Numbered from the stretch's first letter, positions 17,732-54,090 are shown. The stretch: DNA of 64,000 nucleotides from Blasia pusilla (GCA_050084515.1 CM114271.1:37138001-37202000), one strand, 5' to 3'. Numbers and translations are program-made. The notes: generated from the letters alone by a model not told the origin.

Positions 17732-17837
<106 letters not shown>

Positions 17838-23190: not shown

Positions 23191-23329
23191 ACGAGACATC
23201 GCTTGCATTTGCAAAGACAACCAATCGTTGGGGACTTTTGCAGGATTTTCCAACTCAGGGTAGATGTTGTGGCTCGTCGGATTGCTAAGGGTTGCCTCGG
23301 AACTATGCGTTTAGGGATAGAAAAGCGTG

Positions 23330-23960
23330 CAACTTGTCGCTAACCGACGGGTTGCCCTGGTACCTTGCCTATTACCCCAAGATAAGCAAAGCGTGCAACC
23401 CGTCGGCCTTCGACGAGTTGCGTGGGTACCGCGCCTTCTTGCCCAAAGACAGCGGAGGCGCGCAACCCGTTCGCCTCAGACGGGTTGCGCAAGTGCCTCG
23501 CCTTGTAACGCTTACATGAAGGAAGCGTGCAACCCGTCGGCCTCTGACAAGTTGCGCGGGTGCCCCGCCTTCTTGCCCAAAGACGGCGGAGGCGTGCAAC
23601 CCTTCGGCCTCAGACGGGTTACGCAAGTGCCTCGCCTTGTAATGATTACATGAAGGAAGCGTGCAACCCGTCCACCTACGACGAGTTGTACGGGTGCCTC
23701 GTCTTCTTGCCCAAAGACGGCGGAGGCGCGCAACCCGTCGGCCTCAAACAGGTTGCGCAAGTGCCTTGCCTTGTAACGCTTACATGAAGGAAGTGTGCAA
23801 CCTTTCGGCCTCCGAAGAGTTCCGCTGGTAGCCCGCATTCTTGCCCGAAGACGGCGGAGGCGCGCAACCGGTCGGTTTTCGACGAGTTGCCAGGAGGACG
23901 GATGCCTGCAACCTGCGGAAAGCGTGCAACCCCGTCAGAGCCCTCGGAGTCGTCGGGTTG
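23330..23960. repeat. ~133-bp tandem repeats, each with two GCAACCCGTCGG..CCGACGGGTTGC-type palindromes
   Basis: CCTTGTAA(C/T)G(C/A)TTACATGAAGGAAG recurs at ~23502, ~23636 and ~23769. A shorter equivalent array is at ~38780-39080. Confidence 0.9.
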
Positions 23961-24050
23961 GTGTTTTTCACGTCCAGACTTCCATAACGGCCAACACGTC
24001 ACCGTCGGAACGACGATGCGACCCAACGGTCATCCCAACGGCTCGAAAAG

Positions 24051-24058
24051 TATAAATA
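24051..24058 (+). promoter_or_regulatory. TATA box of the ParB-MTase gene, copy 1 (equivalent at 39208-39215 in copy 2)
   Basis: TATAAATA is conserved in both copies, ~210-250 bp upstream of the ATG of MTRKK. Confidence 0.55.
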
Positions 24059-24297
24059 ACCGAGTGTTTGCTCATTTCCGGTTTTTTGTTTCGCAATCTC
24101 AATTGCTCTTCTGCGCAGCAGCTGACCAGATGCTAAGGGGCGCTTTACACCACGACTCATCGTGAGACGATTCGAGCTACTCATCAAGGCGACTCATCAC
24201 AACATTAGCAAGGCGACTCATCAAGGCGACTCCTCGAGGCGACTGATCGTGCACAAAAAGCAATTTCCTTGTCCATAGGAGGCATTTTCGGGAACAA

Positions 24298-25410
24298 TGA
24301 CAAGGAAAAAAACTCAAGCAAGCAAGGTTGGGAGCTTCACTCCCAAGGGTGGGAGGACTCATGCGTCACCATCTCCATGGCCTCGTTCGGCCAATGAGAT
24401 AAGGCAGCAAGAAATCGAGGAGCGGGAAAGGGAAGCGGAGATGCACAAGCAGGAGCTTCTTGCAAAATGCTTTAAGGAGGCGCTCAAAAAACAGAACGCA
24501 GAGGCTGAGGCGTCGCAGTCCTTGAAGAAAAGGATCGCCGATGAAAAGCGTGAGAAGAAGCGTTTGGACGCGTTGGTGAGGAGAGCAGAATTGGAAAAAG
24601 CTCAAAGGGAAAAAGCGATTGCCATTGAAGAAAGCCCTGCTCGTCCAACCGAAAGTGTTGAGATGCAGGAAATATCCCCGATGAAGTCCGGGGACACAAT
24701 CAATATAGTGGAAACAGACGAAGTTCGAGTGATGGATGATGAGGTCATGAGGACCGCCATCGTGGAGATGGTGGACATCGCTGAAGAAGCTGAAGAGCGC
24801 TCTTCCTCGTCTCTTAGCCGGGCGGAAGAATCGACCTCTATCGGATCGACGAGTTTCCAGTGGACTTGCCAGATGTTGTCCCAGAGTAGTTGGCTGGCCA
24901 AGACACCGACCCAATCTTCGAGCGGGTAAGAAACGATCTTGGATCTTTGAGTTATGTGAAGGGCCATGTTGCAATTCATTGGAAATTTAGTGTGGTTTAT
25001 CGACCTTGTCCCCGTTGTGACAGGTGGTAAAGTAGATGGCACTGATGGAGGGCTAGAACGCCCTGAGAATTCCACTTTGCCGATTGCGGACAATGGAGTA
25101 CGTTCGCGAAATTCTTGAGGGAACACAGCAACTGTTTGACCTTTGTAAAGAGGCAAAGGAAGATTACGATAGGCTAGTTGGGACGTACAACTCTCCTCCG
25201 AAGCCGAAAGCTCTGGTTCTAGACCCACCATTGGTAGTGACACCATCGTCACTTCCCCCGATTCCAAAAATCGGGAGGGCAAGGCCGACAGTAATTCTGG
25301 AAGAGCTCTCGGACGATGATGAGTGAGTTCAAAGAACTCAAGGACCCAGCTTGATTGCAGCGTTTGGAGTAGGGATTTATTTGATGACGAGGCAAAAGAA
25401 TTCATAGAAT
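24298..25410 (+). pseudogene. Internally deleted copy 1 of the ParB-MTase gene (N-terminal charged/coiled-coil exon fused to the C-terminal tail)
   Basis: The MTRKKTQASK.. exon matches 39418-40053. MEYVREI (=~40221) joins directly to LEGTQQLFDLCKE (=~44100). Confidence 0.75.
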
Positions 25411-26499
25411 AGATCAAATGCACAGTTCCGAGCTTCTTTCGGATGGAATAATGGACAAGATTTTTTCGAACGATGATGGTGTTTGTAAAAGTTTGTTGAA
25501 TATATTTTTTGGTCTTGTCGAATGTGATCGTCTATGTACTCCGAGGACTTATTTTTTATAACCCGTCGGATTTCCACGACTTGCAACTTCTCACTTTTTG
25601 ACCACTGCACCTATTTAACCACTTCCAGGCAACTTGTCGGATTCCAACAGGTTGGCTGCGTGAGTGATCGGACTCTTTCCCTGTTGGTCCAACTTTAGAG
25701 GCATTCTGGCGGGCTTCTTCACTTTGACACCTTCCCCCGGTATCGTCAAACAAGGCGTAGGCTTCTTCTCTTCTCTAAGATGTGTTGGATTCCTACTACC
25801 TGTTGGATTGCCATCATGGTATTTCCAAGGACGGAGCATATATTGATACTGGATGGGTGTCACATTGCAGAGCATACAAGATATATTGCCGAGGAAGGCG
25901 GTGGGACTCAAATCAGGTTACATGGGACCGTTATGGTGTACCTAGGGGGGGGCCAAGGTTCTCCAATTCGCCAACATTTTTTATCCCAGTCTGCAATCGG
26001 CCAGAGGAGCCACTTGTATCCCAAGACATTCCTTTTGTACAGGAACCTAGGAGAGTTAGGAGTAAATTTGTAGATGACGAGGTTGAAGAAATCATAGACT
26101 AGATCAAATGTACATTTCCGAGCTTCCTTCGGATGTAATAATGGACGAGATTTTTTCAAACAATAATGGTGTTTGTAAAAGTTTGTTGAATATAATTTTT
26201 GGACTTGTCGATTGTTTTCGTCTAGCTACTCATAATGTTTATTTTGCAACCCGTCTGATTCCGACGCGTTGCAACTTTTCACTTTTTGACCACTGTAACT
26301 TTTCAACCATTTCCAAGCAAGGTGTCGGATTCCGACAGGTTGGCTGCTTGAGTGATTGGACTCTTTCCGTGGAGACCAAATTCTGAGGCATTGTGGCGGG
26401 CTTCTTCACTTTAGGCTCGTTCCCCTAGTATCATCAAACCAGTCGTAGACTACTTTTCTTCTCTAAGACGTGCTGGATTCCTATAACCTGTCGGAAGGC

Positions 26500-28197
26500 C
26501 CCCTTCCTTTTGTTATGCCTTTTGTGAGGAAGACATGGGATGCTGTAGACATAGCATTGCTCTTGCCCGGTCTTGTTGGCATGCCTCCACAAGTGAAATT
26601 GTTTGACATGCTTGTGACAACCTCCAAGAGGAATGAACGCTTTCAGCTCCACTTATGTTGGGGCAAAGGGCATTTTCATGAATGTTCAATCCCTGCAACG
26701 ATGGCGATGTGAGAAGGGAACAAAAATAGCTCAAAATTCAAAGAAGTAAGCTTCTTGTCGGAACCAGATGGGTTGCAAGGCCGAGGCATCCCATGAACGA
26801 CTCTGCGACGTGTCAATTCCTGACGTGTTGCAACATCCAGGAACCACCTAGTGCAACCCGTCCGATTCCGACGTGTTGCAAGTAAATTTGGCCATGCGAC
26901 TTGCAACCCGTCCTTTTCTGACTGGTTGCACACTCAGGCAACCCATCAAACCATCCTTTTCCGACTGGTTGCACTCTCAGTCAACCCGTCAAATTCCGAC
27001 GGGTTGCAAGTAAATTTGGCCGTGCAACTTGCACCTCCTCGGTTTCCGACTGGTTGCACACTCAGGCAACCCGTCAATCAGCGACGGGTTGAACGGGTTG
27101 AGCAACCTGTCGCATCCGACAAGTTGCTTGATTTCTTTGGTTTTAAATCCCTATAGTGACCACGCTTCTCAACTTTAGCTGCAACCCTTCAAACAATTTT
27201 CAGCGAGACAAATTAGTGAACTCACTTCCCGCATGAAGTTTCCCCATTGTCTCATTCGTACAGTCCACCAACTCAACCAAGAGCATAACTCTTTGTACTT
27301 CCCCTCAATCGCATGTTTCCTCCACCACCCATGAATTTCTTCTTGGCATTCCATGGTATGTTTCAAGGTTTTGTTGTCCTTGCAGCCTTGGAGTAGAGTG
27401 ACATGCTCCGTCCTCTTATTCTCCTTGATGCAAGATTTGGTGTACCGGGTCACAGACTGTTGCCAATGGAAAGCATCCGACCTTTCTCTCTTCGATTGAA
27501 CCTCCTCACCCCAAAACACTTCCCTGGTAGCAATCCACCCTTGGTTGTGCATTATCCGCCATAAACCCATAAATTTCCGAAGGTGGCCTTTTTTTTCCTT
27601 CATCACCTCCAATGAGAGTAACCAGCACATCTTCAAACTGCCAACGTCTTCTGCTTTTACTTCACATACAAATATAGTTTTGAGTCCCTTCTCCACATGG
27701 TCATAAATGTGAGCACCCATTGTCAACCATCCATTCAGCACTGTGTAGCAAATATCAAAGCTTACCCAACTTCCGTAAAGATCTTCCCCTTCCCTCATTC
27801 GATCTGTAAGATCAAGGCCACTCGACGGACTTGTCGTTGATATTTTGAAGACATAGGCCCTGGATCCTTTGCCTCCATGGCCCATGAACTGCCATCTCTT
27901 AATGAATGGAAATCTAGAGTTGGCCTTGATTCTGGAAATAGCATCCATTTCGGCCGTCTTTCCATCCAGTACCCATATTTGACGCAGCAAATTCGAGAAG
28001 CATTCAGGATCGGCGAGAAATGCGAGATTTTCCCATGGTAGTTTTTGCTCAGCAGCCGTGATCTCGCCCTGACCAGGGATTCCAAGAAGTTGTTCACAAA
28101 ATTGTGATGTTGTTGTTAACTTGATCACTCCACGCTTTGAACCCGGAGAGTTTCTGTAGACCTCGGCCACTTTATTTGCCATATCCTCCTTGTTTAC
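26500..28197 (-). pseudogene. Mutator-like (MULE) DDE transposase, catalytic half; exons ~28197-27225 and ~26692-26500
   Basis: WVSFD (first D, ~27755), GFMADNAQ (second D, ~27555, across a frameshift), DAFHWQQSV (the MULE C/DxxH motif). After a GT-AG intron comes PNISGAESVHSSW (E, ~26643). Confidence 0.75.
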
Positions 28198-28539
28198 CAT
28201 ACGGATTATGTCGTAGAGTATAGTGTGCTAGTAGAGGACATTCCTTATGTAGGACCGTAGTGGCTTGGTAGAGATGCGGTTTCATACATAGGGTTGGGGG
28301 TGACTTTCCCAGTAGGGCCCGCTCTTAGGTTGGAGGATATAAGGTGGAGTGCACTCTAAGAACAATCAGTTCTTTGAGTTGAGCCTGTTGCGTTGGGAGT
28401 TAGCCTTGGTAGTGAGTAGAGCCCTTGGCTATGGTGTTTCCCGCAAGCTTTGACCTAGATTCTCCCATCGTGGAGTGGGTTTGGCTCGATTGTATGTGAT
28501 TCTATATGTGTTTTATGACAGTAGGTCTTTCACGGATTT
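28196..28539 (+). repeat. 5' LTR, the part alignable to the 3' copy; lacks the first ~98 bp, true 3' end unresolved
   Basis: ACCATACGGATTATGTCGTAGAG..GGTCTTTCACGGATTT is near-identical to 36847-37170. Confidence 0.85.
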
Positions 28540-29716
28540 CACTCCAAGAACTGCAGTAGATCGATGGTAGCTTCGATTGTAGATCAGTAGGATCTGGTTA
28601 GGGCTGATTGTGTACTCAGCCGTGGATGTTCGTGGCTTGTGGCCTATGTTGGAGGTGTGAATCTCGTGCGTGGTTGGTTGGGAAAGAAGGGCCTTGCTGA
28701 GAGCTTTCCAACGCGCTTTAAATCGCCGGATTTCATCAAGGGAGTTGGAGGCTTCGAGGCAACTCGTGGTAGCTCGGGATGAGTGGGCGTGAGAGGCGGA
28801 GCAAGGAGCAAGCAAGCTGCTTGCTTGGGCGTGAGGCAATTTTTGCAGGATTTGGGATTTGAGTGTTGCATAACTGGTCACCTATCTTTGGGCTATTCTG
28901 CCTGGAGGACGCTTAACTGCTGAGTTCTTTACTATGCTAGTGTTCACACTGTTGTAGCTCATTTGGTGCTGTTCGGAGATGTTTAGGCGCTTTATGCATC
29001 TCAGGTTTTTGGTTGATGTACCTCTAGCGCATAGTACGGTGTAGCCTCTCCATGCAGGTGATATTTTTAGGTGCTGCGAGTTCGACTAGCACGTCATCGA
29101 CCCGCGGTGGAGTAGCTATTGCGTTAGAATTGTGTGGTGGGTTTTGTGGATTCAGGGGGCACCACGTTTGGTGAATTATGTTACCTTGATTTCCATTTGT
29201 GGATTCAAGGGGCACCACGTTTGGTGGATTATGTTACCTTGATTTCCATTTGCAATTGGAGGGTTGTCGTTGGACTTCTTGTGTTTGGATCCCATCCATC
29301 AGTGCTTCTTGCTTGCGCGCCCATTGTTAGGGTTGACGCTGATTTCCAGAGTAGTGTTACTCCTGTGTGCTATCGGTAGTGAGGCTGGAGGGATGACGAG
29401 TAGACGGTGGGAGGCTTCTTGTGGTGATGACAAGTTAGGTTGCCTGCACCCATAGCTAGTAGAGCTAGAATAGTATAGCGACATCGACGTCACTTGGTTA
29501 TTTGGTGGTGGTACGGCATCGGCGTTGGTCATCACGAAGCTGTCGGGTGGTCTGGTTGGGGACCGTGGTGCGGACAGTGGTGGTTTCACACGGAGTGGAT
29601 TTAGGTATCGGCTACCTTTTCTACTTCCAACGGTTGATGAAGAGGAGGACGAGGGTGTTCCAAACATCGAGTCTTCTACGTTGTTATCGAGTGTTGCAAC
29701 TCCATTGATTTGGGAC

Positions 29717-30914
29717 ATGGACGGTGGATATGGGGCCATGAAGGGCCCACGACGATACTTGGGTGCAATGGGCACCATTGAGTTGGAGGACTTCATGTAG
29801 GAGTTTGATACGTGGTGTGATATGCAGATGTTGCGGAACGCCACGTTGTTTACACCCTTCTTGGCTTGGAAGGGGTTGTTTCAACACTTGGAAGGACCAC
29901 CCATGGATGATTACCATGAGTTTAGGAAGGACCATGTTGATGAGATTGAGGCATGGAGACAATATTGGTCTCCAGGCTATGTGTCTATCACCCATGGTGG
30001 TATTGGTAGTAGTGCTCCTACTATGCCAGCCAGCCCGACGTTGAGTGAGCCGAAGTGGGGGTACCAGTGGAGGTATTAGTGGGGGTACTAGTGGAGGTAC
30101 TAGTGCCTCACCATCGTTCAGCCCGGTTGCAGAGTTCTTCAAGAGGTTGAAGAAGAACTCTCAGGGAGTGAAGACGGAGAAGTTGAGGAGTCTTCAGGAA
30201 TTTGAGCGAAAGACTGGTGAGAGTCTTCGTGAGGCATACACTTGTATGCGACGCTTGATTTCAGTTACCCAGGGTGTGATTGAGGATCAGGCAGTCCCGT
30301 TTTGGTATGGGATCTTGGACAGAGATTTGCGCCGTAGGGTACATGATGCTACTCTTATGAGTGATGATTCATCCACATTGACCCATGTGTTTGCTCTATC
30401 TGAGAAGATTGAGCTTAACATGGTGAAGGAGAGAGTGGTGACATCCGCATTCAAGAGGGGATACAACTACTACTTCGTGTTCAGTTGACCCACCTCACGG
30501 TCTCGTAGTAGTGGTGGTGGTAGTAGTAGTGGGAGTCATGGGGGGTACACACGACCTCAGTTAGGTCCTAGAGGGACACTTGCGCAGAGACCATTGCCTT
30601 CATTTGCTGCCCCGCAACAAGGACAATTATGTTGGACATGTGGAGGTGATCATGTTAGGAAGTTTTGTCCCCAAGAGGATGGGAGACGGACTTTGGAGGA
30701 TGGGCCTCAGTCGGCCCCAACTCGGTGTGATCATTGCGGGAGACCAAGTCATCCTCGAGAGCGTTGCTTTGATCTTCATCCAGAGTTGAGATCAGGCCGC
30801 GGCCGTGGTGGAGTAGCTCCGAGAGGCCGAGGTGGTAGAGGTGGACCAGTGGTTGGAGAGCCTACGGTGGCTACCCCTACCACTACGACAGTCACTATGG
30901 GCTGCCAGGATTGA
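29717..30914 (+). pseudogene. Gag with two CCHC zinc knuckles
   Basis: LRSLQEFERKTGESLREAY (retrotransposon Gag pattern), CWTCGGDHVRKFC and CDHCGRPSHPRERC, then RGRGG repeats. Broken by stops and frameshifts. Confidence 0.85.
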
Positions 30915-31559
30915 GTAGTTGGAGCAGAGTTGGCTACTATGGTGGTATCCAAAGATAGATCAGGTTCGGGAGCAGGGCTTCCACCTCTTATGGAGGGATG
31001 ATCTCTCTTATATGGCGAGTGCAAAGACAAAGGTTGAGGCATCACCTGCAGCTTTCGAGAGGAGCCACTCGAGCGTTAGAGCCACGTGGTGCTACTGTGG
31101 AGTTGGACCCACAGAGGGGTGAGGCTGGGAGGCAGGCTAGGCTTCCCGAGTCATTCTTGTTGTATGAGGTGCTTAGGACTCCACCATGGTTCCCTCAGCG
31201 GCCTATTGAGCCGGCGCAGTGGGGACTAAGGCATCTACATCGCGTGTAGTAGACACGGATGCACCATCCGATCAAGATTGTGCGGATGGCAACCGATGTT
31301 GGGATCCCCATTGTTTTCGGCCACGGAGCTGATGGCTTTAGGAGTTGACTTAGCTCATGTATTTCAGCTAGCAACCACGTTGTGTGAACGTGGGGGTGTT
31401 ATTGCTACACGTGTTGAGGTGGATGAGAGTGTTGCGGTGGAGCGACCCTCTATGTCGGTGTAGCATTGAGTACGATGTGCTACTTGGCGGGCGGCGGCGG
31501 CGAAGATGGATGCATTACCGGCCCGACCACCATTGATCGTGAGAGGCTTACACCTCGTG

Positions 31560-31960
31560 TATGTATGTTGGACAACCGGGTGGGATCTTCCGATTGGTTA
31601 GTCCTACACGGGGCAGTGTATAGACCGGATAGAGTCTTGTTAGACTCACGGTGCCCAACCTTGATGTTGGGAAAGGCGGCATGTATTGGTTTGGGTATTC
31701 GGAGGTCAGAGCTTGAGCCTTGCCCATTCCAGATTCAAACATCACTTGGAGGATCCAATGATAGGTCTCAATTAATGACACGGGAGAAGTTTTCTGTACT
31801 GTTGAGACCAAATCATGCGACTGATAGCTCCCGGTTGGGAGTATCTACGGTAGTCACATCAGCCGAGTCATATGATGTACTAGTTGGAGGAGCAGTATTG
31901 TACCCGATGGGTTTTCAGATGGATTACTGGATTGAGACAGCGTCTTATAGACCTGGTTGG
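31560..31960 (+). pseudogene. Retroviral-type aspartic protease
   Basis: VLLDS(R/G) active-site motif and the downstream YDVLVGG motif. Confidence 0.7.
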
Positions 31961-32368
31961 CAGTCCGGGGATGGACGTATGAGCCAAGTTCCTATGAGAT
32001 TTATTTCTAGGGCTCGACCAGGAGGGTCTTCCCCAACAGTGTTAGCGTCTATGGCTGGTTTTAGTGGAGTAGTCACTTGGCCAGGAGACTTTTTGGAGGG
32101 TAATATTTATGCTATGGATTCTCCTGCGCGTGAGGAGGTAGAGGAGGTCCCTATTCTTGCAGCAGTGGCATCCTCATCGTTGGATGTGCCACTTTGGAGT
32201 TCAGGCGGTGCACTACGGCAGAGGCGTCGCCTAGTGCAGAGGAGGCTTGGTGTGAGGTCATTATACCTCGACAAGGAAGAGGAGACCCCACGGCGGACTC
32301 CTACTTTTGGTCCAGTTGGGTTATCCCCTTTGGATACTACACCCATTGTATGGCAGTATCCGCCGAAG

Positions 32369-33330
32369 GGCATTTGTGTGTTAGATCTCTTTGGTGGGAT
32401 TAGCACTTGGTTTTTTGCAGATGTTGCCGGTATTCCCGTGCGGAGATACGTGTATGTGGAGCGAGATGAGACGGCCCAGAGAGTCTCATCCCGACATATT
32501 GGTCAGTTGATGCGGAGATATCCTGAGTTGTTGCCGCCATCAGCTATTCGTGGGTACCAATGTGCTTTACCATCACACATTGCATTGTTGGGGGCGCAGG
32601 ACCTTGAGAGGGTTGGTCCTGTGGATTTGGTGATTGCTGGATGGCCATGTCAGGGTCATACACGTGTTGGTCGTGGTGAGGGATTACATGACCCTAGGTC
32701 TTGATTTTTTTGGGAGATGTTACGGGTGTTACGACATCTTCAGGTTCACCAGGCACGTGCTCTAGCTTACATTTTGGAGAATGTTCCATTGTTGGATGAC
32801 ACTCGGACCCGGATGATGGCGAGTGTTCATGAGGTGCAGTCTTGGATTGGACCAGCAGTGTTGTTGGATGCAGCGTGAGTTGGCTCGCGTGCACATCGTC
32901 CACGCTTGTGGTGGACAAACTTGTTGCCTAGGGAGGTTCTCGTCAAGCATATGATGCAAGGTCAATGGGATCCTTGCCTTACCGTGGATAGTATCTTGGA
33001 TACTGGGCGACTTTCTCAAGTGGTGAGGGTTATTGATCGGTCACCCATGGCAGTGGTGAACCGTGTGGGCCAGCCTAGGATGGCACTACCCACATTTGTG
33101 AGTTTTCCCTCGTCACATGCCTATAGAGAAGGTGATCCTGGGCTTGTATGGGATTCTCATGTGCGACAGTTGGTGGAGCCTAACGCTGATGAGAGAGAGC
33201 GTGCGATGGGATTTGCTACTGGTGTGACAGCGATTGCTGCTATTTCTGAGGCTTCACGACGTCATGTGTTGGACCTGAATTGTTTGACTTGGATTTTGAG
33301 TCTTGGTATGGCCGAGCAGCGTCGACTTCG
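32369..33330 (+). pseudogene. DNMT3-like C5 cytosine DNA methyltransferase domain within Pol
   Basis: Ordered motifs: I VLDLFGGI, II YVERD, IV VDLVIAGWPCQG (32642-32653), VI YILENVP (32777), VIII AHRPRLWWTNL (32891), IX ERERAMGF. There are stops/frameshifts between some motifs. Confidence 0.9.
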
Positions 33331-33713
33331 GACTATGTCTGTGGGTCTTCCACCCCTTGTAATGAGCTCGATGGCTACCGGGACGGTAGAGGCATCGGCT
33401 GGAGGCGAGGAGAGTAGTATTTTGCATCCTTGGAGTAAATGGGATGTAATGGCTGGGCATGTGGAGTTGGTTGCTCATGTTGGTGGAAGAGTTATTTGCT
33501 CAGATGATGGTGTAGCTAAGGGTGTACCATTTTGTGAGGGGGTTGCGTAGCAGCCAATGTCATCGTCCTCTCCCTCTAGTGTGCTAGTGGAGGAGACTTG
33601 GGAGCCATCACTTGGGCCCAAGCTTACGGGAGGTGAGAAACGACGCTTGACAGAGTTCCTACGTGCTTATAGGAGTTGTTTTGCCTTTAGCATGAAGGAG
33701 TTGGGTTCTCTGG

Positions 33714-35000
33714 TTGGACCTGGTATACGGAATTGATTTGGCTAGTGATACGCCAATCTTCCGTCATCCCTACCGATATAGTGATATGGAGAGTAGGACG
33801 TTGGACCTTTTGGAGGCTGGATTAGTGGAGTTGTCGCATGGAGAGTATGCATCAGCCATTGTCATGCCTGCTAAAAAGGATATGCATGGCAACTACACGG
33901 ATAGGCGGATGTGTGGAGATTACCGTCCTATCAATCGAAAAACCAAGGCCGATAGGTATGCCATGCCTACCCCTGAGGAGATCTTTGATGTGGTGGGACA
34001 GGCAAAGATTTTTAGTACTTTGGATCCTCGGGTAGGATACCATCAATTGCCGATTCGAGAGAGTGACAAGGCCAAGACAGCATTTTGGGGTGTCAACTCT
34101 CATGGCAAGGATTGTTTGTACCAGTGGAAATTCTTACCCTTTGGGTTGAAGAATGCACCTGCCGAGTTTCAGAGAGTGATGGACAGGATCCTAGGAGGGT
34201 TGGATTTTGTTCGGTGTTACATTGATGATATCTTGGTGTTCAGTAACACGGTGGAGGAGCATCAAATATATTTGCAGATAGTGTTTGAGCGGTTGAAAGC
34301 TCATGGTCTACGTTTGCATCCAGGAAAGTGTAAGTTCTTCCATGAGGATGTTGAGTACTTGGGTCATGTGATCTATCTAGGTGGTTTGGGAGTTCAGCAA
34401 GCAAAGATGGAGGCTATTGCAGTTATTCCGCGTCCGGTAGATGTGAGTAGAGTTCAGGCATTCATGGGATTGGCGAACTACTATCGGAGGTATGTGAAGG
34501 GATTTAGTGCTATGGCAAAGCCTTTAAACCAATTGCTGAAATCAGATCAAGAGTGGCACTGGGGAGATGATCAAGAGAGAGCTTTTGTGGAGCTTAAGGC
34601 CCAGTTGGTGGCGGCGCCTATCTTGAGGAGACCTATCAGAGGGCGCCCATTTTAGTTACACACTGATTGGAGTAGGTTGGGACTTGGAGCGGTGTTAACA
34701 CAACATGATGATGAGCACATGGAGTTTGTGGTGGCCTATGCAAGTCGTTTGAATAATGCAACGAGTCGTCGCTATAGTTCATATGAGGGAGAGTGCTTGG
34801 CAAGAGTGTGGGGGCACACTTTAGGTGTTACTTGTTTGGTACGAGTTTACCCTTGTTCTTGATCGGCGACCGCTCAAGTGGTTGATGGAGTCGACAAGCT
34901 TACGGGGGAAGCTTGCACGGTGGGCTCTTATCTTACAGAGTATGACTTCCGAGGTGGTACATAGACCTGGAGTTTCCAACCTTGATCTTTGATGGGTTGA
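33714..35000 (+). pseudogene. Gypsy reverse transcriptase and RNase H
   Basis: RMCGDYRPIN, GYHQLPI, KTAF, LPFGLKNAPAEFQR, CYIDDILVF, YLGHVI, LHTDWS..GLGAVL, YSSYEGECLA. Confidence 0.95.
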
Positions 35001-36580: not shown

Positions 36581-36748
36581 GAGGTAGATGACTTGATCTT
36601 TGCATGATATGGATTGGATGTGCGACTTACGATGGGGCAACCTAGCACCCGGCCTTCCGATTCGGGCACCCAAGAAGATGTATAGCATGTAGTAGATGTA
36701 TAGGGCTACGGGAGTTAGAGGACCTAACCGCTTGATTAGGGGGGGAGT

Positions 36749-37268
36749 TGTGGTACACTTGTATTTGTGGATACTCTCGTCTATGTTATGTATGGTATGT
36801 TAGCGATGTATGTTGTATGACGATGTGGATTTCGCATTTTGTCATGACCATACGGATTATGTCGTAGAGTATAGTGTGCTAGTAGAGGCCATTCCTTATG
36901 TAGGACCGTAGTGGCTTGGTAGAGATCGGTTTCATACATAGGGTTGGGGTTACTCGGTTGGGGTGACTTTCCCAATAGGGCCCGCTCTTAGGTTGGAGGA
37001 TATAAACAAAGTTCTTTGAGTTGAGCCTGTTGCGTTGGGAGTTAGCCTTGGTAGTGAGTAGAGCCCTTGGCTATGGTGTTTGACCTAGATTCTCCCATTG
37101 TGGAGTGGATTTGAGATTCGATTGTATGTGATTCTATCGTGTTTTATGATAGTAGGTCTTTCACGGATTTGGTTGTGGTACACTTGTGTTTGTGGATACC
37201 GTCTATGTTATGTATGTATGTGAGTATGGTATGTCAGCGATGTATTTTGTATGACGTGTGGATTCGCA
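36749..37268 (+). repeat. 3' LTR (36749-37170, truncated) followed by a second copy of the LTR start (37174-37268)
   Basis: TGTGGTACACTTGT begins at 36749, right after the PPT, and again at 37174. Confidence 0.85.
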
Positions 37269-38170
37269 CGACATCCTTGATGTGTCTCTGAATTGCATCA
37301 CTCACAGGATGAGTGTGGGAGCCAACATGAACTGCCAACCTTGTGTACTCTAACGTGGAACCCAAGTCGTGGACAATGAAAAATATGTATGCAAGACACG
37401 CTCCAACGCAGAAAGGGGATGCTTGACAATGAGGACATCGATGGCCTCCCGGCGGTATGGTGGCACCGACCTCATATGGAGTTTCTGCATTCTTGGGAGG
37501 AAATTGCGACGTATTGACCCACATGTTGCGCTCTAGATACAGGCATGCATGACTTTTACACACCAAGGCTCCAACGTATTGGCGGCAGGAGACAATCCAA
37601 GGACAATGTGGAATTGAAGCACTAGTACGTTGAATCCTGCACCATCGATGACAGGACTTTCGTCCATATAGCGTCCTCCATCTTTCTTTTGAGCAGGAGC
37701 AGCAAGTGGAGGCAACTCAAAAATGGAATTACCATCGTACGTGGGCGGAAAATTGTCGACAAGAATGTGCTTGAACATTTTCAAGGTCTGAGACAATAGC
37801 AAACTATTGCCTGATACTCGCACTAAGGTTGATAACATGAGGAATTTCTTCAGGAAGTACAACATTGTAACGAACGTATGAAGTTGGAGTCGATGCCGGA
37901 TCTTTTGAGCTAGGAGTTGCAAATGTAGAGCTCGGTGCACTAGGAAATTCTTGACCGTCTACTTGGAAAAATGAGGAATTCAGAGGCAAGCTGTAAACTC
38001 TGTATTGACCATTTGCTAGAGGTAGGAGATTCCATACTTTACGGTCTGCAATCACTTGCTAGACTGTCTCACGTATTATGTCCTCCGTACTATCCACCCT
38101 AACATCCTTGGATACAAAGATGGTTCCAATTTGGAGAAGAAATCAAACTGAGAGAAAATTTTCATCCATT
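37268..38170 (-). pseudogene. N-terminal half of the MULE-like transposase, with a GCM/WRKY-like Zn-binding region
   Basis: CPHCQASPFCVGACLAYIFF..RLAVHVGSHTHPV (Cys cluster plus HxHP). It reads in frame into the 28197 half once the retroelement is removed. Start codon uncertain. Confidence 0.65.
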
Positions 38171-39417
38171 GGTATGAAAGACTCACGAGCTTGCGGTCGA
38201 ACGATTTCTGATTGAGGAAGGGCCGCAAGATGACTACCACAAGTGAGCTTCACATAATTATCCACTCCCAGAAGATTCCACCGGGAGGAGACTGAGAATA
38301 AGAATGAGGATAAGAATGGGAATGGGTATGAGAATGAGAATGTTCAATTTATAGTGAACAGGGACTCAAATTCTTTTGACAGAATTTGACTAACAAGATA
38401 AAGTTTGGTGGGTGAGATTGTCTAACATTATGGATTCAATTCTGTTGCAACCAGTTGGAGTTCCATGGGTTGCAGAATTTGGGAATGAGAGACGTGGGTT
38501 GCGAAGCACCCAGTTCCATTTTTTGTTTCCGTATCCCAATGCAAATTGGAAGCCGTCGGAGTCCGTTGGGTTGGTACCCCCTTCATGCTGACCAATGGTC
38601 TGTTGAGACTATTTTGCTAGCATCAAACACGAGAAATCGCTTGCATTTGCTAAGGTAACTAATCGCTGGTGATTGTTAGGGGATTGTCCAACTCAGGGTA
38701 GACTTTGTGATCCGTCGGATTGCAAGAGGTTGCCTCGGAACTATCCGTTGTCGCATTGTTACCCGAGGGATAGAAAAGAGTGCAACCTGTCTATAACCAA
38801 CGGGTTGCCCAGGTACCTCGCCTATTACCCCGAGATGAGGGCAGCGTGCAACCCGTCGGCCTTCGATGGGTTGCGCAAGTGCCTCACCTTGTAACGCTTA
38901 CATGAAGGAAGTGTGCAACGCATCGGCCTCCGACGAGTTGCGCGGGTACCCCGCCTTGTTATCCCAAGACGAGGGAAGGGTGCAACCCCCCGATCTTTGA
39001 CGGGTTGCACGGGTACCTCGCATGCTTGCCCCAAGATGGCGGAGGCGCGCAACCTGTCGGAATCCCACGGGTTGCCATGATAGCTTGGCTAGGACGGATG
39101 CCTCCAACCTGTCAGAGACCCTCGGGTTGGTGGTTTTCACGTCTAGACCTCCATAACGGCCGATACGTCACCATCAGAAAGACGGTGCGACCCAACGGCT
39201 CGAAAAGTATAAATAGGCTAGGGTTCGCTCATTTCCGATTTTTCCTTTCGCGATCTCGATTGCTCTTCAGCGCAGCAACGGACCTGATACCAAGGGGCGC
39301 TTTACACGGTGACTCATCGTGAGACGATTCGAGTGACTCATCCGAGCGACTCATCAAGATGACTCATCGTGCACAAAAAGTAATTTCGTTGTCGAGGAGG
39401 AGGCACTTTCGGGAACA

Positions 39418-42400
39418 ATGACGAGGAAAAAATCTCAAGCAAGCAAGGCTATGAGCTTCACTCCCAAGTCCAGGACTCATGCGTCACCATCTCCAGGGCC
39501 TCATTTGGCCAATGAGATAAGGTAGCAAGAGATCGAGGAGCCTAAAAGGGAAGCGGAGATGCACATGCAGGAGCTTCTTGCAAAACGTGTTAAGGAGGCG
39601 CTTGAAAAATAGAACGCAGAGGCTGAGGCGTCACATGCCTTGAAGAAAAGGATCACCGAGGAGAAGCATGAAAAGAAGCGTCTGGACGCGTCGGTGAGGA
39701 GAGTAGAATTGGAAAAAGCTCGAAGGGAAAAAGAGATTGCCATTGAAGAAAGCCCGCCCCGTCCAACTGAAAGTGTTGAGATGCAGGAAATGTCCCCGAT
39801 GAAGTCCGGGGATACAATCAATATAAAATCAGCTGAGGAGACGGCCGAAGTTCAAGTAACGGATGATGAGGTCATGAGAACCGCCAGCGTGGAGATGGTG
39901 GATATCCCTGAACAAGCAGGAGAGCGGTTTTCCTCGTCTCTTAGCCCGTCGGAAGAAATTGACCTCTATCGGATCGACGAGTTTCCAGTGGACTTGCCAG
40001 TTGCTGTCCCATAGTAGTTGGCGGGCCAAGACATCGACCCAATCTTCGAGCGGGTAAGATACGATCTTTGTTCTTTGAGTTATGTGAAGGTCCATGTTAC
40101 AATTCATTGGAAATTCAATGTAGTTTATTGACCTTGTCCCGGTTGTGACAAGTGGTAAAGCAGATGGCACTGATGGAGGGCCATAACGCCCCGAGAATTC
40201 CACTTTTCCGACTGCGGAAAATGGAGTATGCCGCGAAATTCAGTCTGAGGAGGATATTGCGAAGCTGAAACAATCGACAGCGACTACATCCTACGTCGAC
40301 AACTTCCCTCCGTTCTAGGTTCAGCCTTACGATGAACATGGAACCCAAACGCTGGTGACTGAGGAGGACTTGGAAGCGTTCGACACATTTTGAAGGATGA
40401 GAGATCAAGAATTCAGAAGAGCGATTGAGGGGACGGAATTCAGCTGGATGCGGAACCTCTATTTCTTCATATGGGATGGATACCACAGGTTCATGGCGTG
40501 GACCCAGTTTGAAGAGGAGCGCCAAAACTCATTGGAGGCGCATTTCTACGTGAAGGCACTCGTGCTACATCCATACCCTCATCACATGGCGATAGTGGGA
40601 ATGGCCATGCATGCCATGAACACGTAAGTTTCCTCTTTCTTTATTTTGATTGCTGCAAACCGTCAGACTCCGACAAGTTGTTTAACTAGTGCTAACAAAA
40701 CATCAGATGCCTTAAAGCAACTCGTCAAAGTCCGACGAGTTGCTTGACTGGCCGCTGTTTTTAGGATGTTTTTGGCCAAAAGAAACTCTTCGGAGTCCGA
40801 CGAGTTGCTTGACTGGCCGCTTTTTTTAGGATGTTTTTGGCCGAAAGCAACTCGTCAGAGTCCGACGAGTTTCTTGACCGGACGTTGTTTTTAGGATGTT
40901 TTTGGCCGAAAGCAACTCATCAGACTCTGACAGGTTGCATGCGCCGACATGGGTAGGTCATCGGAGTAGAGGAGCTTGATTTTTGGCATCAAATTGCAGC
41001 TTTACTTGAAATTGCACAACATGTCATACTCCGACGGGTTGATATGTCCACTTTTTCCGCGGCGACCACTCTCTGAATACAAATTATCTGACAACTCGTC
41101 GGAGTTTGACGGGTTGTAATTAGGCAATCACAGATCTGAATGCAATCCATCGGACTCCGATGGGTTGCAATATTTAGCTCGTAGCTACCATTCCAACCAT
41201 GAGGTGTGGCGACCTGTCGGAGTCCGATGGGTTGTAGGAACTGATGTAGCTTGCAAAAATTCTAATATTGTGTTTGGATGTGCAAGATTGTATTTGAGGG
41301 GAATGTCACCCACCACTGGATCCAGGATTGCGATCGAGTGAAGAAAGTGCTAACGACGCACTTGGTAGAGTATAAGGGGTTCTTGGGCGACGCCTTTGTA
41401 AATGAGATGTTGGCGAAGGGGGCTCAAATAAAAAAAAGACTTGGGCAAATACATTTATTTCTCAAGATGCAGCCGTGACAATCCTTTGCTGGTCGAAGAT
41501 ACAGACCGCCAAGAAGAGCGCTTCATTGGAGCTGGAGCGGAGGGAGAACCTGTCTTTGTCTGAGCGTGCTAAGTTCATCCAAGTTGCAGTATCTAAAACT
41601 TCAAAATACACTGCAAGCAAGATGCGCTACATCGCCATTCTCAACCCCGAACATGGCCCCGATTTCTACAAGAAGCTGAAGGCGATCATCAAGCGCCAGC
41701 GGAAGAGTGATGAAGATCCGCATGGTCGGATTGGGGAGAAAGTGTCTCTCGAACGCGTCCATAGATTTGCCTTGTCTGGAATTTTGAAATTTAGGAGAAT
41801 CCGACTGATGAAAATCAGTCTCGAGGGCACAGAGGCCCAAAAGACGGCGGCACACCATCCTTCAGGTGTCTCTGATCCAGTGATCTCCCACTGGCTCCGT
41901 GAATGGTCATTCTGGGACGCGTTGCGGCTTCTCGGGAAGTCCATGCTCTTGGGTCTCAAAGCGGAGCTGAAAAAATAGAGCCACTTTCGGAGGAAGCAAA
42001 CTTGGAGAGTGTTGAAGATTTTGAACTTTGGCTGGATGACATCCGGGACTAGCCCATAAAAAAGCTAGGCTTCAGGACGATGTTCAAGGATCACATCCTC
42101 CCTCAGGCAGACCTTGATGAAGAAATAGAGGCGAAGAAAAGGGATTTCGCAAAGAAAAAGCGAGATCTTCAAGAGTAGGCGGCTGATGCATCTTGACTAA
42201 GAGCTGCCCAACGCATGGTGTTCAGGTACCTTGTCCATTGTAAGAATGCAGGTACGTGGCGAGAGACATTTTCCATGTTCGAGATGGAGATGGCTCAAAG
42301 CATGTCCGACTGGGAGGTGGAGAATTGCCCCATCTAGCTGGCCTTAAACAACCCCGAGGACATCACCGATAAAAATCTTTGACGTGTGTATGATGTAGTG

Positions 42401-44400
42401 GCCATAGGTAGGGACGACATCCCGAATTTCGTGCAGCTTGAAGACTTTTTCGAAGGAGATGCGGAGGAGCAAGCCCTCGAGACAGCAGAGTTGGTGTCCA
42501 AGGTCGTCACCGCCAAGGACAAATCTACAGCGGGTCTCAAAGCCAAGGCGAGGGGATCGAAGAAATTCGAGGCTGAGTCTTCCAAAAAAGAGGCTGAGAA
42601 TTCAAGGCATGAGGCGGAATCGTCCGGGCGAGCGGGGAGAGAGGGTCGGACCAGGTCCTCCGCCAAAAAAACTCCACCAGAGTGTAAGGTAATAGAGACC
42701 CCAACAAGCCGACTGCAAACTCGGGAGAAGCGGAAGCGAGAGGTGCGAGGTTTTTCCCAAGGAGCATACCAGGATGTGGAATACATTCCATCATCCTTGG
42801 GAAGACATAGAGAAACAACGACTTGGAAAATCGTCATCATTCACTGCACGAATATTCTGGATGAGCTGCAAAGTTTCAGTTCCCAAGCGTCGACACCTGC
42901 CATCGACAAATTGACAACGCAGGGACGGAAGCTTCAACGAAACGGGCACGCTCCCTCAATGGTCCATGGGGAGGTCGAGGAGGTGGCGGTGGATCTCCTC
43001 GTCGCTGATTTGCCCTCTGGGGTTACGCTTGTGGGACGAGAATCGATCTGACAATGTCCCAGACTGGAATGTCCCTCTTTCTTATGACCAGATCGCGCTT
43101 CTATTTTCCTTTGCATACGCTTATCTCATCGACAAGGGTTGTTTCTTGGTCTTGACTGGAGGGAGCGAGGACAAGCTCTTCAACGTGCAATGCGTCAAGA
43201 GGTCGCTGAAGTGGAGGACGGCGCAATCGTGGGTCATCAAGAACGAGTACCCACTCTGATCGGCGATGAGTCAAATCCGGTAAGGGCTCTAAATCCATAT
43301 ACAAATTTTCTTGCTCTGACAGGTTGTATCTCTGCATGCAACCCGTCGGATTGTCTGAGCTGGAGACTTCGGTGGTGCAATCTATCTGAAAGCGACGGAT
43401 TGCAAATTTACGGCAAGTCTCCATTGGGTGAATACAACCCGCCGGAACGTGACGGGTTGCAAGTGCTTATGCTTTTCCTTGTGTTTTTGGAATGATACAA
43501 CCCGTCTGAAAGCGATGGGTTGCTCTTAGCCAACCATGGGCTGCTCTAAGCCAGCAACCCGTCGCCTTCCGACGGGTTGCTAATGGCAAAAAAAATCACT
43601 AACACTTATAAAACAACCCGTCGGACACCTACAGGTTGCTCCAATATTAGGACTATAAGTTCTCTGCGGTTAAGCGAAGTTCTTTGGGGACGAGTTGCAC
43701 ATTGTGTCACCATATTGATAGTAGACTTTTCTTGTTGTTGCATACTCAAATTAGCTCTTTCTTGTTGCTGACATTGTTTCCAACCTGCTTCTTTACACAT
43801 GGATCATTCCTTTGTGTGTTGTTTTGTAATGCCCGAGCACAACTTCCAACTGTTTCAGATCCTCGATCTAGTGGATCCATGCTCCGATGGGTACAGCTTA
43901 GATAGTTTATACAATTACCCCCCAGGGAATTTACATGCAAAATGGTACCCCCTTACTTGGAGGAAGGGAAAAGTCGTCAACGCTAATGCAAACGCTCATC
44001 GAGCTCTACTCAAGGCCGGGTGACTTGGTGTTTGACTTAGTGGGCTTAGCAATTGCGAGTATCAAAGGCGCCTGGCATAATGGCAGGAACATTCTCTGCC
44101 TTGAGGGAATGCATGAACTGTTTGACCTTTGCAAAGAGGAAAAGGCAGATTACGACAGGCTAAATGGCAGGCATTACGACAGGCATACAACTCTCCTCCG
44201 AAGCCGAGAGCTCGGTTCCAGACCCACCATTGGTAGTGACACCATCGTCACTTCCCACGATTCTGAAAATCGGGAGGGCAAGGCCAAAAATAATTCTGGA
44301 AGAGCTCTCGGACGATTACGAGTGAGTTCAAAGAACTCAAGGACTTGACTGCAACGTTTTGGAGTAGGGATTTATTTGATGACGAGACAAAATAATTCAT
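39418..44400 (+). pseudogene. ParB/Srx-like domain plus beta-class N4-cytosine/N6-adenine DNA methyltransferase fusion; exons ~39418-40053, ~40151-40623, ~41287-43279, ~43800-44400
   Basis: ParB-like IPLFRL..REIQSEEDIAKLKQS..FFIWDGYHRFMAW. MTase KIVIIHC..VDLLVADLPSG..WN..YDQIALLFSFAYAYLIDKGCFLV, then EKSSTLMQTLIELYSRPGDLVFDL..SIKGAWHNGRNILCLE. GTAAG donors at 40054, 40624 and 43280. Several stops and frameshifts. Confidence 0.75.
40725..40945. repeat. ~63-bp tandem repeat (3-4 units) of the palindrome inside an intron
   Basis: AAAGCAACTCGTC..GTCCGACGAGTTGCTTGACTGGCCGC..TTTTAGGATGTTTTTGGCC repeated. Confidence 0.9.
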
Positions 44401-47400
44401 AGAATATATCAAATGTACAGTTTCGAGCTTTCTTCGGATGTAATAAAAGACAAGATTTTTTCGAACGATGATGGTGTTTGTAAATGTTTGCTGAATATCT
44501 TTTTTGTCTTGTCGATTGTGATCGTCTATGTACTGCAAAAATTTATTTTGCAACCCGTCGGATTGCCACGGGTTGCAACTTTTCACTTTTTGACCACTAC
44601 ATCTTTTTAACCACTTCCAGGCAACTTGTCGGATTCCGATAGGTCGGCTGCGGGAGTGATTGGACTCTTTCCTTTGTTGGTCCAACTTTACAGGCATTCT
44701 GATGGGCTTCTTCACTTTGGCACCTTCCCCTAGTTTGGTCAAACAAGTCTTAGGCTTCTTCTCTTCTCTAAGACGTGTTGTATTCCTACTACCTGTCAAA
44801 TTGCCATGATGGTGTCTCCAAGGACGAAGCACATATTGATACTGGATGGGTATCACCGTGCAGAGCGTACAAGATTTACTGCTGAGGAAGGCGGTGGGAC
44901 TCAAATCAGGTTACATGGGACCGTTATGGTGTACCTAGGGGGGTGCCAGGGCTCTCGAATTCGCCAACATTTTTCGATCCCCGTCTTCAATTGGCCAAAG
45001 GAGCCACTTGTATCCCAGGACATTCCTTTTGTACAGGAACCTAGGAGAGTTAGGAGTAAATTTGTAGATGACGAGGTTGAAGAAATCATAGACTAGATCA
45101 AATGTACATTTTGAGCTTCCTTCAGATGTAGTAAAGGACAAGATTTTTTCAAACAATAATGGTGTTTGTAAAAGTTTTCTGAATATATTTTTTGGACTTG
45201 TCGATTGTATTCGTCTAGTTGCTCAGAATGTTTATTTTGCAACGCGTCTGATTCCGACGGGTTGCAACTTTTCACTTTTTGACCACTGCAACTTTTTAAC
45301 CATTTCCAAGCAAGCTGTCAGATTCTGACAAGTTGGCTGATTGAGTGATCGGACCCTTTCCCTATGAGAACAACTTTTGAGACATTTTGGTGGGCTTCTT
45401 CACTTTTGGCTTGTTCCCCTTGTATCGTTAGACCAGTCGTAGGCTTCTTTTCTTCTCTGAGACGTGTTGGATTCCTACTACGTGTCGGATTGCCATTTCG
45501 GATTCCCAACTACATGTATTTTCGTGGGTGCATGATGGAATGGAATCACTTTTCAAAATCTTTCCTTTGTTATGGTGAGCTTGCTTGCAAGGGATGCAAG
45601 CCATTTGATTCCGACGGGTTCCAAGAGTTGCAACCTGTAAAATTTTGACGGATTGGGAGGGGTGCAACTTATCGGTTTCTCTGATTTAGGATCTGAATGA
45701 AGGGACATCGGTTCCTCTTTACTCCAGATTGTTAACAATATTTTGGTTCAATTATTGTCTACTATGTTCACATTTCACAAAGTTGGTCTTTATTTGAACC
45801 TTTCATTGAGATGAGATTGCTACCTATGGTCAAATTATTTGCCAATGGTCCTCCAACAAAAATACCCATGGGCACAGCTTACTGTAGACTGAGACAGGCA
45901 ATGTGAAGAAACTTAGGCTCACATGGAGAGTGATGGAAAAATGTTTGTAATGGTCTTATGATATCTACTTGTTTTTCGCCCCCTGGAAAAAGGAGGTTTC
46001 TTTAGGCCCGAATGTGGACCACTACCTACTCTCTTCTAAAGATTTCATGAATTTGAAAGCAAACAAAAATTTCAAATATGTCAAAAATTTTAAGAGAGGA
46101 GGCGGATTTGGCCCTTTTTTTTTAAGAGAGACTCTCCTCTCTTCCTCTCCTTTCTTCCTCTCTCCTGCCAGAATACCAGCCCCCAAGGCGTTGGGACTCC
46201 AATCATGTTACATGGGACCGTTATGGTGTATCCTGGGGGGGGGGGGGGGCAAGGCTCTCGAATTCCCCAACATTTTTTATCCCCGTCTACAATCGGCCAA
46301 AGGAGCCACTTGTATCCCAAGACATTCCTTTTGTAAAGGAACCTATGAGAGTTAGGAGTAAATTTGAAGATGACAAGGTTGAAGAAATCATAGACTAGAT
46401 CAAATGTACATTTATGAGCTTCCCTTTGATGTTATAAAGGACAAGAAGTTTTTGAACCATGATGGTTTTTGTAAACTTTTGCTCAATTGTTTTTCGTTCT
46501 TGTCGATTGTGTTGGTCTAACTACTCGAGGCTTTTTAGTTTGCAACCGTTGGATTTCGACGTGTTGCAACTTGTCAGAATATTTTTAACCCCTTTCAGGA
46601 AACCTATCGGATTTTGACAGGTTGGCTGCTTGAGGGATCCCCCTCTTTTTGTAAACTTTTGCTGATTTTTTTTTGTTCTTGTCGATTTTGTTGGTCTATC
46701 GACTCGAGGCTGTTTATTTTGCAACCCGTTAGATTCCTAAGGGTTGCAACTTGTCACAATATGTTTAACTCCTTTAAGGCAACTTGTCAGATTCCGACAT
46801 GTTGGTTGCTTGAGTGATCCCACTCTTTCCCTGCTAGTCCAACTTCTTAGGCATTCTGGCAGGCTGCTTCACATTTGCCTCGTTCCCCCATTATTTTCAC
46901 ACCATTCTTCTCTAACACGTTATTTCAGAGACGTGTTGGATTCCTACTACCTGTCAGATTCTCATGTCAGATTCCCAATCTGTCGGATTCTCATGGGGTC
47001 TAGGGTGGAATGGAATCACTTGTCAAGATCATTATTTTTTTCTAGTGTGTTTGCTTGTAAGGGGTGCAACCCATCGCATTGCGATGGGTTGCAAGAGTTG
47101 CAATCTATCGTATTTTGACGGGTTGGAAGGGCGCAACCTGTTGGATTCCGACATTTAGGGTCTGAATGAAGAGACATGGGTGCATCTGTTCCTCTTTACT
47201 CTTGACAACTATCAACCTTTTGGTTCAATTGTCGTCTCAATCTGATCACATTTTCTTCTTGATGCATACATTTCTCAGTGGTTGAGAAAATGGTGAAACC
47301 AAATTGTCAAATGCACAACAATCCATGGTATACTTTATGTACCCATTCATGAGCCAACATCATCCAATGATGTCATGAAAGTCTCCGGCTACCATCAGTG

Positions 47401-53957: not shown

Positions 53958-54090
<133 letters not shown>

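Follow-up and report, generated by a model that had tools for sequence, protein, structure and literature searches.

That a transposon may be recognized by a protein of its own, through arrays of a motif lying in its non-coding DNA, is not an idea that is new in kind, as it is known or proposed for several plant and algal transposons. The guidance of such a protein by such arrays is proven in a few plant systems only, and for the algal transposons that carry ParB-domain genes it is a proposal. Here, we examine a window of 64,000 nucleotides from Blasia pusilla (GCA_050084515.1, CM114271.1:37138001-37202000; the window is this whole stretch, and positions are counted from its first letter), which contains a dead giant DNA transposon of a probable Mutator type. 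About 60 copies of a 27-base-pair (bp) palindrome are found in the non-coding DNA of this element. From the architecture of the locus and by analogy with the systems detailed below, we suggest, with about an even chance of being right, that these palindromes are relic arrays of binding sites for a protein encoded by the element. The locus would be a further, rather clear example of the phenomenon, set apart by the arrays that additionally occupy introns in both of the element's genes. It supplies a concrete candidate site with a clean consensus, and if the methylase-bearing protein of the element were the one that binds it, we would have here a transposon that puts a methyl mark other than cytosine-5 on its own DNA. 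As the copy in the window is dead, its value is that of a pointer to a family rather than of a working system.

Described systems and how the locus compares

Among plant elements, the Arabidopsis transposon VANDAL21 encodes the VANC21 protein, which binds a 9-base motif. Dense arrays of this motif occupy introns as well as intergenic and terminal non-coding DNA of the element, and they evolve in the manner of tandem repeats (Hosaka et al. 2017, PMC5735166). As described in that work, VANDAL21 resembles the Blasia element in being of Mutator type, in carrying an accessory gene and in having a dense non-coding motif that spreads by tandem duplication, the VANC motif being also rare elsewhere. 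However, the VANC motif is asymmetric and found in one orientation, whereas here we deal with a 27-bp palindrome. VANC is, in the same account, neither a ParB protein nor a methylase, and its binding and its effect on methylation are experimental, while ours is a comparison of sequences only. A second plant parallel is En/Spm, whose TnpA protein binds dense motif clusters, and the transposase of AtMu1 is reported to activate cognate copies (preprint 10.64898/2026.08.24.746577). The TnpA clusters resemble ours in that motifs on the scale of 12 bases, direct and inverted, are bound by a regulator that the element encodes. They are subterminal, unlike the palindromes described here, which occupy promoters, introns and tail modules of an element with undefined termini.

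The algal cases bring in the ParB and methylase domains. In the red alga Bostrychia, Plavaka elements carry a ParB-domain accessory gene (PAG3) beside "tandem arrays of inverted repeats"; Petroll et al. propose, as a hypothesis, that the transposon is bound and modified by the PAG3 protein that it encodes, and report homologous accessory genes in Mutator elements of Chondrus crispus (bioRxiv 10.1101/2025.02.11.637652). The likeness, drawn from the description only, is that of a giant DNA transposon with a reputed ParB-like accessory gene and adjoining arrays of inverted repeats. According to the same description, PAG3 differs in combining ParB with a 2-oxoglutarate (2OG) oxygenase, the methylase being separate (PAG2), and the transposase is of the EnSpm/Plavaka type. 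In Ectocarpus, the element Sola1-1_Ec32 has a gene for a ParB-like and DNA methyltransferase protein on the strand opposite to the transposase, and for green-algal cases its authors point to Iyer et al. 2011 (Dinatale et al. 2025, PMC12477816). The position of the accessory gene, the proposed pair of domains and the proposed role in binding and modifying its own element are the same as those considered here, but Sola1-1_Ec32 belongs to the Sola1 superfamily, and the passage on its accessory gene mentions no repeat arrays. ParB-type helix-turn-helix domains fused to Dam-like methylases are also described in chlorophytes and chytrids (Iyer et al. 2015, PMC4738411). Among the papers listed by our search of the literature on ParB, methyltransferases and transposons, there was no other eukaryotic case.

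Finally, in the bacterial systems ParB-parS, SopB-sopC and KorB with its operator, palindromic sites, often arrayed in tandem or else scattered along a replicon, nucleate a dimeric protein that acts at a distance, and KorB also represses promoters. The clustering of palindromic sites is what these systems share with our locus, but the palindrome described here has no sequence likeness to parS, and in the Blasia element both the ParB domain and the helix-turn-helix are putative.

A palindrome confined to the non-coding DNA of one element

The consensus given by a weight matrix, GCAACCCGTCGGANTCCGACGGGTTGC, is a perfect palindrome of 27 bp, with two 12-base arms around three central bases (12+3+12). 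With at most 3 mismatches the full 27-mer occurs 10 times in the window and in none of 100 dinucleotide-preserving shuffles, and with at most 5 mismatches it occurs 36 times. The weight matrix was derived from these 36 sites and, at a threshold of 8 bits or more, it finds 60 sites versus 0.3 per shuffle (20 block shuffles, in which the best score was 11.1 bits). All 60 lie within 23269-47159, in the non-coding DNA of the element, and none was found in the Gypsy retrotransposon nested in it, in the homology-supported transposase exons, in the methylase open reading frame (ORF) or in the remaining 49 kilobases (kb) of the window. If 2 mismatches are allowed, there are 78 matches to the 12-base half-site, of which 77 are in 23344-47144 and a single one is at 11356, about the chance level outside the element. 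The original prediction, which was made from the sequence alone, had given this consensus with five example copies and had confined the palindromes to the non-coding DNA of the element, and all of this is borne out, one of the examples lying at 26981-27007, one base off the approximate 26982-27008.

The outer GCAAC/GTTGC and the T9/A19 pair are the best kept positions of the palindrome, while the four CpGs are the most variable. The arms are common to all arrays and the central three bases vary by array (GCCTC, GAGTC, GATTC, GAAAG). The flanks differ between clusters, so that at least 8 flank contexts exist for one palindrome. A miniature inverted-repeat transposable element or a foldback insertion was considered and rejected, as inspection by eye of the flanks of the 60 sites revealed no consistent duplication.

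The element includes two homologous parts, which we call copy A, an internally deleted partial duplicate, and copy B. In a self-comparison, 23188-25114 matches 38626-40241 at about 80%, and 25114-26495 matches 44100-45489 at 88%. Copy A has no counterpart of 40241-44100, yet it has retained arrays. The ratio of observed to expected CpG is 0.99 for copy A, 0.78 for copy B and 0.46-0.68 outside the element. The window outside the element also has an excess of TpG/CpA, and the host genome looks CpG-depleted.

Arrays at promoters, in introns and in the tail

The palindromes form about a dozen clusters across 24 kb (Table 1). The places that the original prediction had named, which are the divergent promoter regions, the transposase intron, the two long gaps of the accessory gene and the tail modules, all hold palindromes. 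Most copies are members of tandem arrays, for which Tandem Repeats Finder gives periods of 67/134, 65, 43 and 34 bp, and the number of units varies, as a homologous array has 10 sites in copy A and 7 in copy B. The arrays were generated and varied by tandem duplication. This is, however, not the whole picture. In the array that lies in the accessory gene's first long gap, 5 sites belong to a 65-bp tandem repeat and the other 4 are separated by unrelated spacers. In the arrays at 41016-41235 and 43301-43639, the spacers are 0.45 identical to one another versus 0.43-0.44 when shuffled, and between these spacers of chance similarity the palindromes are 0.71 and 0.67 identical, respectively. A conserved palindrome between unrelated spacers is the older signal in these data, that of a past constraint. 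The contention that the sites are a self-recognition array "rather than passive tandem repeats" thus goes too far, most copies being tandem members, although the point behind it stands: the flanks do differ, and two arrays have spacers at the chance level of similarity.

The position of the arrays relative to the promoters is consistent between the two divergent genes. On the plus strand of copy B, the array ends at 39130, 78 bp before a TATAAATA TATA box at 39208-39215. On the minus strand, on the side of the transposase, the site 38447-38473 lies about 95 bp before a TATAAAT at 38353-38347. A third box is found in copy A, where a truncated copy of the accessory gene has its ATG at 24297. Three TATA boxes, those of both divergent genes and that of copy A, thus have an array whose end is 78-160 bp upstream, a placement that one would expect of operators or upstream activating sites. 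The clustering in divergent promoter regions (23269-23890 and 38447-39130) had been foreseen in the original prediction.

Between the TATA box and the accessory ATG, both copies also have a 13-bp tandem repeat, ACTCATCAAGGCG, at 24179-24248 (5.5 copies, in copy A) and 39310-39370, which makes it a second reiterated motif of the leader.

Table 1. Palindrome arrays, genes and other features of the element (positions in the window)
Feature	Position	Strand	Description
Copy A, internally deleted partial duplicate	23188-26495	+	Defined by self-comparison
Array of copy A, promoter type	23269-23890		10 sites with a 67-bp period and a 134-bp higher-order unit
TATAAATA box of copy A	24052-24059	+	About 160 bp past the array end (23890)
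Two module pairs	25558/25629 and 26246/26317		2 + 2 sites, 71 bp apart
3' transposase exon ORF, NISGAESVH stretch	26516-26737	-	P0119 residues 223-257, E=7e-05
Transposase-intron array	26750-27092		8 sites, spacing 35-55 bp
Transposase ORF of 350 residues	27178-28227	-	Homologues, RNase H-like model
Nested Gypsy retrotransposon	28196-37170	+	Long terminal repeats (LTRs) 28196-28539 and 36847-37170; RVT_1 33696-34655; no palindromes
5' transposase exons with Cys/His zinc region	37234-37958	-	
Divergent-promoter arrays of copy B	38447-39130		9 sites, 67-bp spacing across the last five
Accessory gene, now a pseudogene	39418-44348	+	ATG at 39418; stops, frameshifts
Array in first long gap of accessory gene	40655-41235		9 sites, spacing 51-104 bp
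Array in second long gap of accessory gene	43301-43639		6 sites, spacing 57-76 bp
Methylase C-terminal ORF	43902-44345	+	Resembles N6_N4 DNA methylases
Repeated tail modules	44550-47159		14 sites; pairs 71 and 58 bp apart, short 34-bp arrays

The element and its two genes

The transposase gene lies on the minus strand. A search of 1.84 billion representatives with its 350-residue ORF gives 130 homologues at E<=0.001. Pfam assigns no family, that of the Mutator-like elements (MULE) included, to the window ORF or to 26 of the homologues, the sole match among them being a weak one to ZSWIM1-3_RNaseH-like (E=0.054). In a language-model atlas, the homologue P0005 sits among MULE clusters (score 0.94, with the 10 best hits all in one clan). 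A structure model built from 27 sequences, with a predicted local distance difference test (pLDDT) score of 81.3, has as its best match in the PDB the ISCth4 transposase (E=2.4e-3, probability 1.00, but a template modelling (TM) score of only 0.22), and the next matches are to further RNase H-like folds. ISCth4 is an IS256-family enzyme, and IS256 is the bacterial relative of Mutator. Calling the transposase Mutator/IS256-like, or MULE-like, is reasonable but not proven. The atlas and the IS256-type fold speak for the MULE identity that had been given to the element, while the lack of a Pfam MULE match and of terminal inverted repeats speaks against it: between 22000 and 49000, no inverted repeat was found other than the palindrome itself.

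The rest of the gene can be followed through its homologues. The ORF 37234-37716 aligns to residues 130-187 of P0005 (E=2e-07), directly before the stretch that the 350-residue ORF matches (residues 193-526), so the Gypsy retrotransposon splits the transposase gene. At the other end, the part of P0119 matched by the 3' exon ORF lies downstream of the part matched by the 350-residue ORF. Because the alignment is thereby continued, the 8 palindromes in between are in a true intron, as had been claimed, and its 5' splice site reads GAA/GTGAGT near 27216. Several of the aligned homologues end a few residues past a conserved RQWG motif, which suggests that the intron may be conserved in position.

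The accessory gene is divergent from the transposase gene, and its C-terminal ORF resembles N6_N4 DNA methylases. The match to Pfam PF01555 (N6_N4 DNA methylase) has E=0.047 and 14.1 bits, below the cut-off of 26.7. In the atlas, the ORF has a score of 0.95 with 26 of 30 hits in the N6_N4 family, and it matches 36 phage records at E 0.07-1, where 14 of the 15 matches listed lie on annotated methylase genes. In the search for a helix-turn-helix following the ParB domain, the ORF 41406-41975 gave a weak Pfam match to HHH_7 (E=0.11). Word-indexed protein searches with the transposase ORF, the ORF 41406-41975 and the ORF of the ParB motif returned no homologues of the accessory protein, which is weak evidence of absence.

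The transposase and the accessory genes are both broken, and the copy in the window is dead. The LTR pair of the nested Gypsy is only about 84% identical (16% diverged), and the death of the host element is therefore old. As for its extent, the original prediction ran from 23280 to 47160. All sites are indeed in 23269-47159, but the repeated element starts at 23188 and its tail of repeated modules extends to at least 47941. Directly to the left of the element, at 22536-23288, there are ORF fragments with a LLEDDNE-type stretch, within which the homology with copy B starts abruptly at about 23190. Stretches of this type occur in Helitron Rep/helicase proteins; the fragments, which have no Pfam match at E<=0.001, would be a tentative case of these.

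What the palindromes may be

In the reading that we favor, the palindrome was recognized by a DNA-binding protein of two-fold symmetry, which the element encoded. The most likely binder would be the accessory protein, with its methylase domain and possibly a ParB-like domain, the zinc region of the transposase being the alternative. Sites in the promoters, introns and tail repeats would create a high local density, through which the protein could find its own element and control the two TATA promoters that adjoin the arrays, and the methylase, if active, would mark the DNA of the element. The arrays grew by tandem duplication, and the sites would now be decaying relics, the copy in the window being dead. 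The perfect symmetry of the consensus, the confinement of the sites, the variety of their flanks, the arms shared between arrays with different centers, the chance-level spacers of two arrays, the position at promoters, the retention of arrays by the deleted copy A, the likeness of the accessory ORF to methylases and the VANDAL and algal precedents argue for such cis-acting self-recognition sites, which the original prediction had also proposed, while the evidence on ParB, on symmetry and on conservation does not.

Indeed, several results count against our reading. Regarding the protein, the accessory gene is interrupted by several in-frame stops and by one frameshift or more. Methylases of this kind have a DPPY-type catalytic motif and an FxGxG-type cofactor motif; the corresponding positions here read DLPS and FDLVGLA, which are degenerate, and a frameshift separates the two halves of the domain. 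The methylase assignment of the original prediction is therefore kept in a weakened form, as the Pfam, atlas and phage matches support it and the weak match and degenerate motifs do not. The ParB domain fares worse, since it comes down to one WDGYHR-like motif, FIWDGYHRFMAW, near 40472-40489 and in a frame that has stop codons; no ParB domain was detected in Pfam (E<=10), in the PDB (E<=10), in phages by tblastn (E<=1) or in the protein database. A single-sequence AlphaFold model of the 77-residue ORF with this motif is one long helix with a pLDDT of 63.5, which is uninformative. In the transposase, the second catalytic D is lost, the window copy reading GLWRIMH where the homologues have GFMAD. 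Our sample, moreover, is one locus.

Regarding the sites, we measured symmetry in the 58 that score 16 bits or more (696 arm-pair cells), the null being obtained by shuffling the right arms among sites. There are 470 consensus cells, 192 with a one-sided change, 23 with a two-sided change that is still paired and 11 with an unpaired two-sided change, so that changes breaking the symmetry dominate (192 vs 23 compensated). The compensated cells seem in excess, 23 versus 15.0 +/- 3.2 expected (naive P=0.013, shared descent being ignored), but 7 of them represent a single T-A pair that recurs in homologous copies of a module, and 3 are tandem copies of one change. With copies that share a change by descent collapsed, about 16 independent events remain, which equals the null, and compensatory substitutions thus do not exceed chance. 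The total of paired cells, 493 of 696 versus 482.5 +/- 6.7 expected, has P=0.07. Nor is there any excess conservation over the flanks: across six paralogous alignments, the palindromes are identical at 484 of 602 positions (80.4%) and the remainder at 3508 of 4304 (81.5%). There has been no constraint on the palindromes since the paralogous copies diverged, which fits a dead element. Decay is fastest at CpG, where 26% of the positions have changed (69% of the changes being transitions), versus 21% for other C/G and 9.5% for A/T.

Much of this would suit arrays that are passive minisatellites, in which a structure-prone palindrome, with no protein partner, has seeded replication slippage in DNA free of constraint. 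Most copies are in tandem arrays, paralogues show no excess conservation, the sites have no real excess of compensatory change, and single-strand palindromes fold as stable hairpins of -6 to -14.4 kcal/mol. Slippage, however, copies the spacers too, whereas in two arrays conserved palindromes stand between chance-level spacers and the motif recurs in a dozen or so distinct places, spread over 24 kb. The consistent placement upstream of three TATA boxes also speaks against this explanation, which we hold possible but doubtful. A similarly tentative standing belongs to the transposase as the binder, in which case the palindromes, bound through its N-terminal Cys/His region, would serve to autoregulate the divergent promoter and to recognize the element in transposition, like the motifs of Spm TnpA. 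The Cys/His region is conserved in the transposase family, the arrays adjoin the TATA box of the transposase and fill its intron, and both the activation of cognate copies by the AtMu1 transposase and the binding of dense motif clusters by TnpA, as reported in the preprint cited above (10.64898/2026.08.24.746577), are precedents. But there are no terminal inverted repeats or terminal clustering to show for it, many sites lie deep within the accessory gene rather than at the ends, and the data do not distinguish the transposase from the accessory protein as the binder. In the other direction, the accessory protein could be given a much more specific role, namely that a eukaryotic transposon has adopted a bacterial-style ParB/parS module, in which a ParB-like clamp fused to a methylase loads at the arrays, spreads, writes N6-adenine or N4-cytosine marks and controls the divergent promoter as a self-addressed epigenetic label. 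We consider this elaborate version unlikely.

Two further explanations leave aside the proteins of the element. The sites could be recognized by a host transcription factor, the palindromes being used by the element as CpG-rich enhancers. Their promoter-proximal position at the TATA boxes and the lesser CpG depletion of the non-coding DNA of the element agree with this, but the 49 kb that flank the element in the window, including the region of a host Longin-domain gene, contain no site at all, which makes it very unlikely. The palindromes could also act as RNA, the transcripts of introns folding into long hairpins that would feed small-RNA pathways or affect splicing. The transcript of 40700-40950 does fold to -107.2 kcal/mol (z=-7.7), with neighboring palindromes pairing with each other, and it has matches to models of plant microRNA precursors in Rfam. 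These matches are far under the gathering cut-offs (MIR6020 at 40838-40946, 34.9 bits versus 118; MIR814 at 40775-40878, 28 bits versus 90), and their cause is the pairing of neighboring palindromes, which gives stems of some 27 bp. Selection on RNA structure was rejected, as changes compatible with G-U pairing have no strand bias (60 vs 48), and many sites are upstream of TATA boxes and so outside the transcripts that start there. We regard a role as RNA as highly improbable. The arrays, if transcribed, could nevertheless give double-stranded RNA. No transfer RNAs were found.

Target and origin of the site

Coming back to a methylase-bearing protein as the binder, a GANTC target at the center of the palindrome was considered, GANTC being the target of CcrM/HinfI-type methylases of the same Pfam family. 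It was found in only 20 of 60 sites, for instance at 40717-40938 and 44550-45336. The array of the first gap has it in 6 of 9 sites and the tail modules have it in 8 of 14, versus 0 of 10 in 23269-23890 and 0 of 6 in 43301-43639, which is too inconsistent, and the idea was dropped. A prokaryotic origin of the site was also rejected: two patterns of the palindrome with 22 specified bases each have no exact match in 185,579 bacterial and archaeal species, represented by a single genome apiece, and blastn of the region 38700-41300 against plasmids and phages gave no match.

Surroundings of the element

The window is a transposon-rich region. A stretch at 358-1650 belongs to the family of the nested Gypsy, with 68% similarity, and contains a PHD-finger ORF (958-1467, E=1.6e-10). 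On the minus strand, there is a DUF4218 ORF at 51308-51787 (E=5e-34), a domain found in CACTA-type transposases, and a Copia-type ORF with Pol_BBD and gag_pre-integrase at 55463-56140. Two ORFs at 8351-9307, on the minus strand as well, match a Longin (regulated-SNARE-like) domain (E=1.7e-08 and 5.3e-10) and probably form one intron-containing host gene, no other clear host gene being seen in the window. Finally, two perfect microsatellites are present, (AG)50 at 17736-17836 and (GA)64 at 53962-54089.

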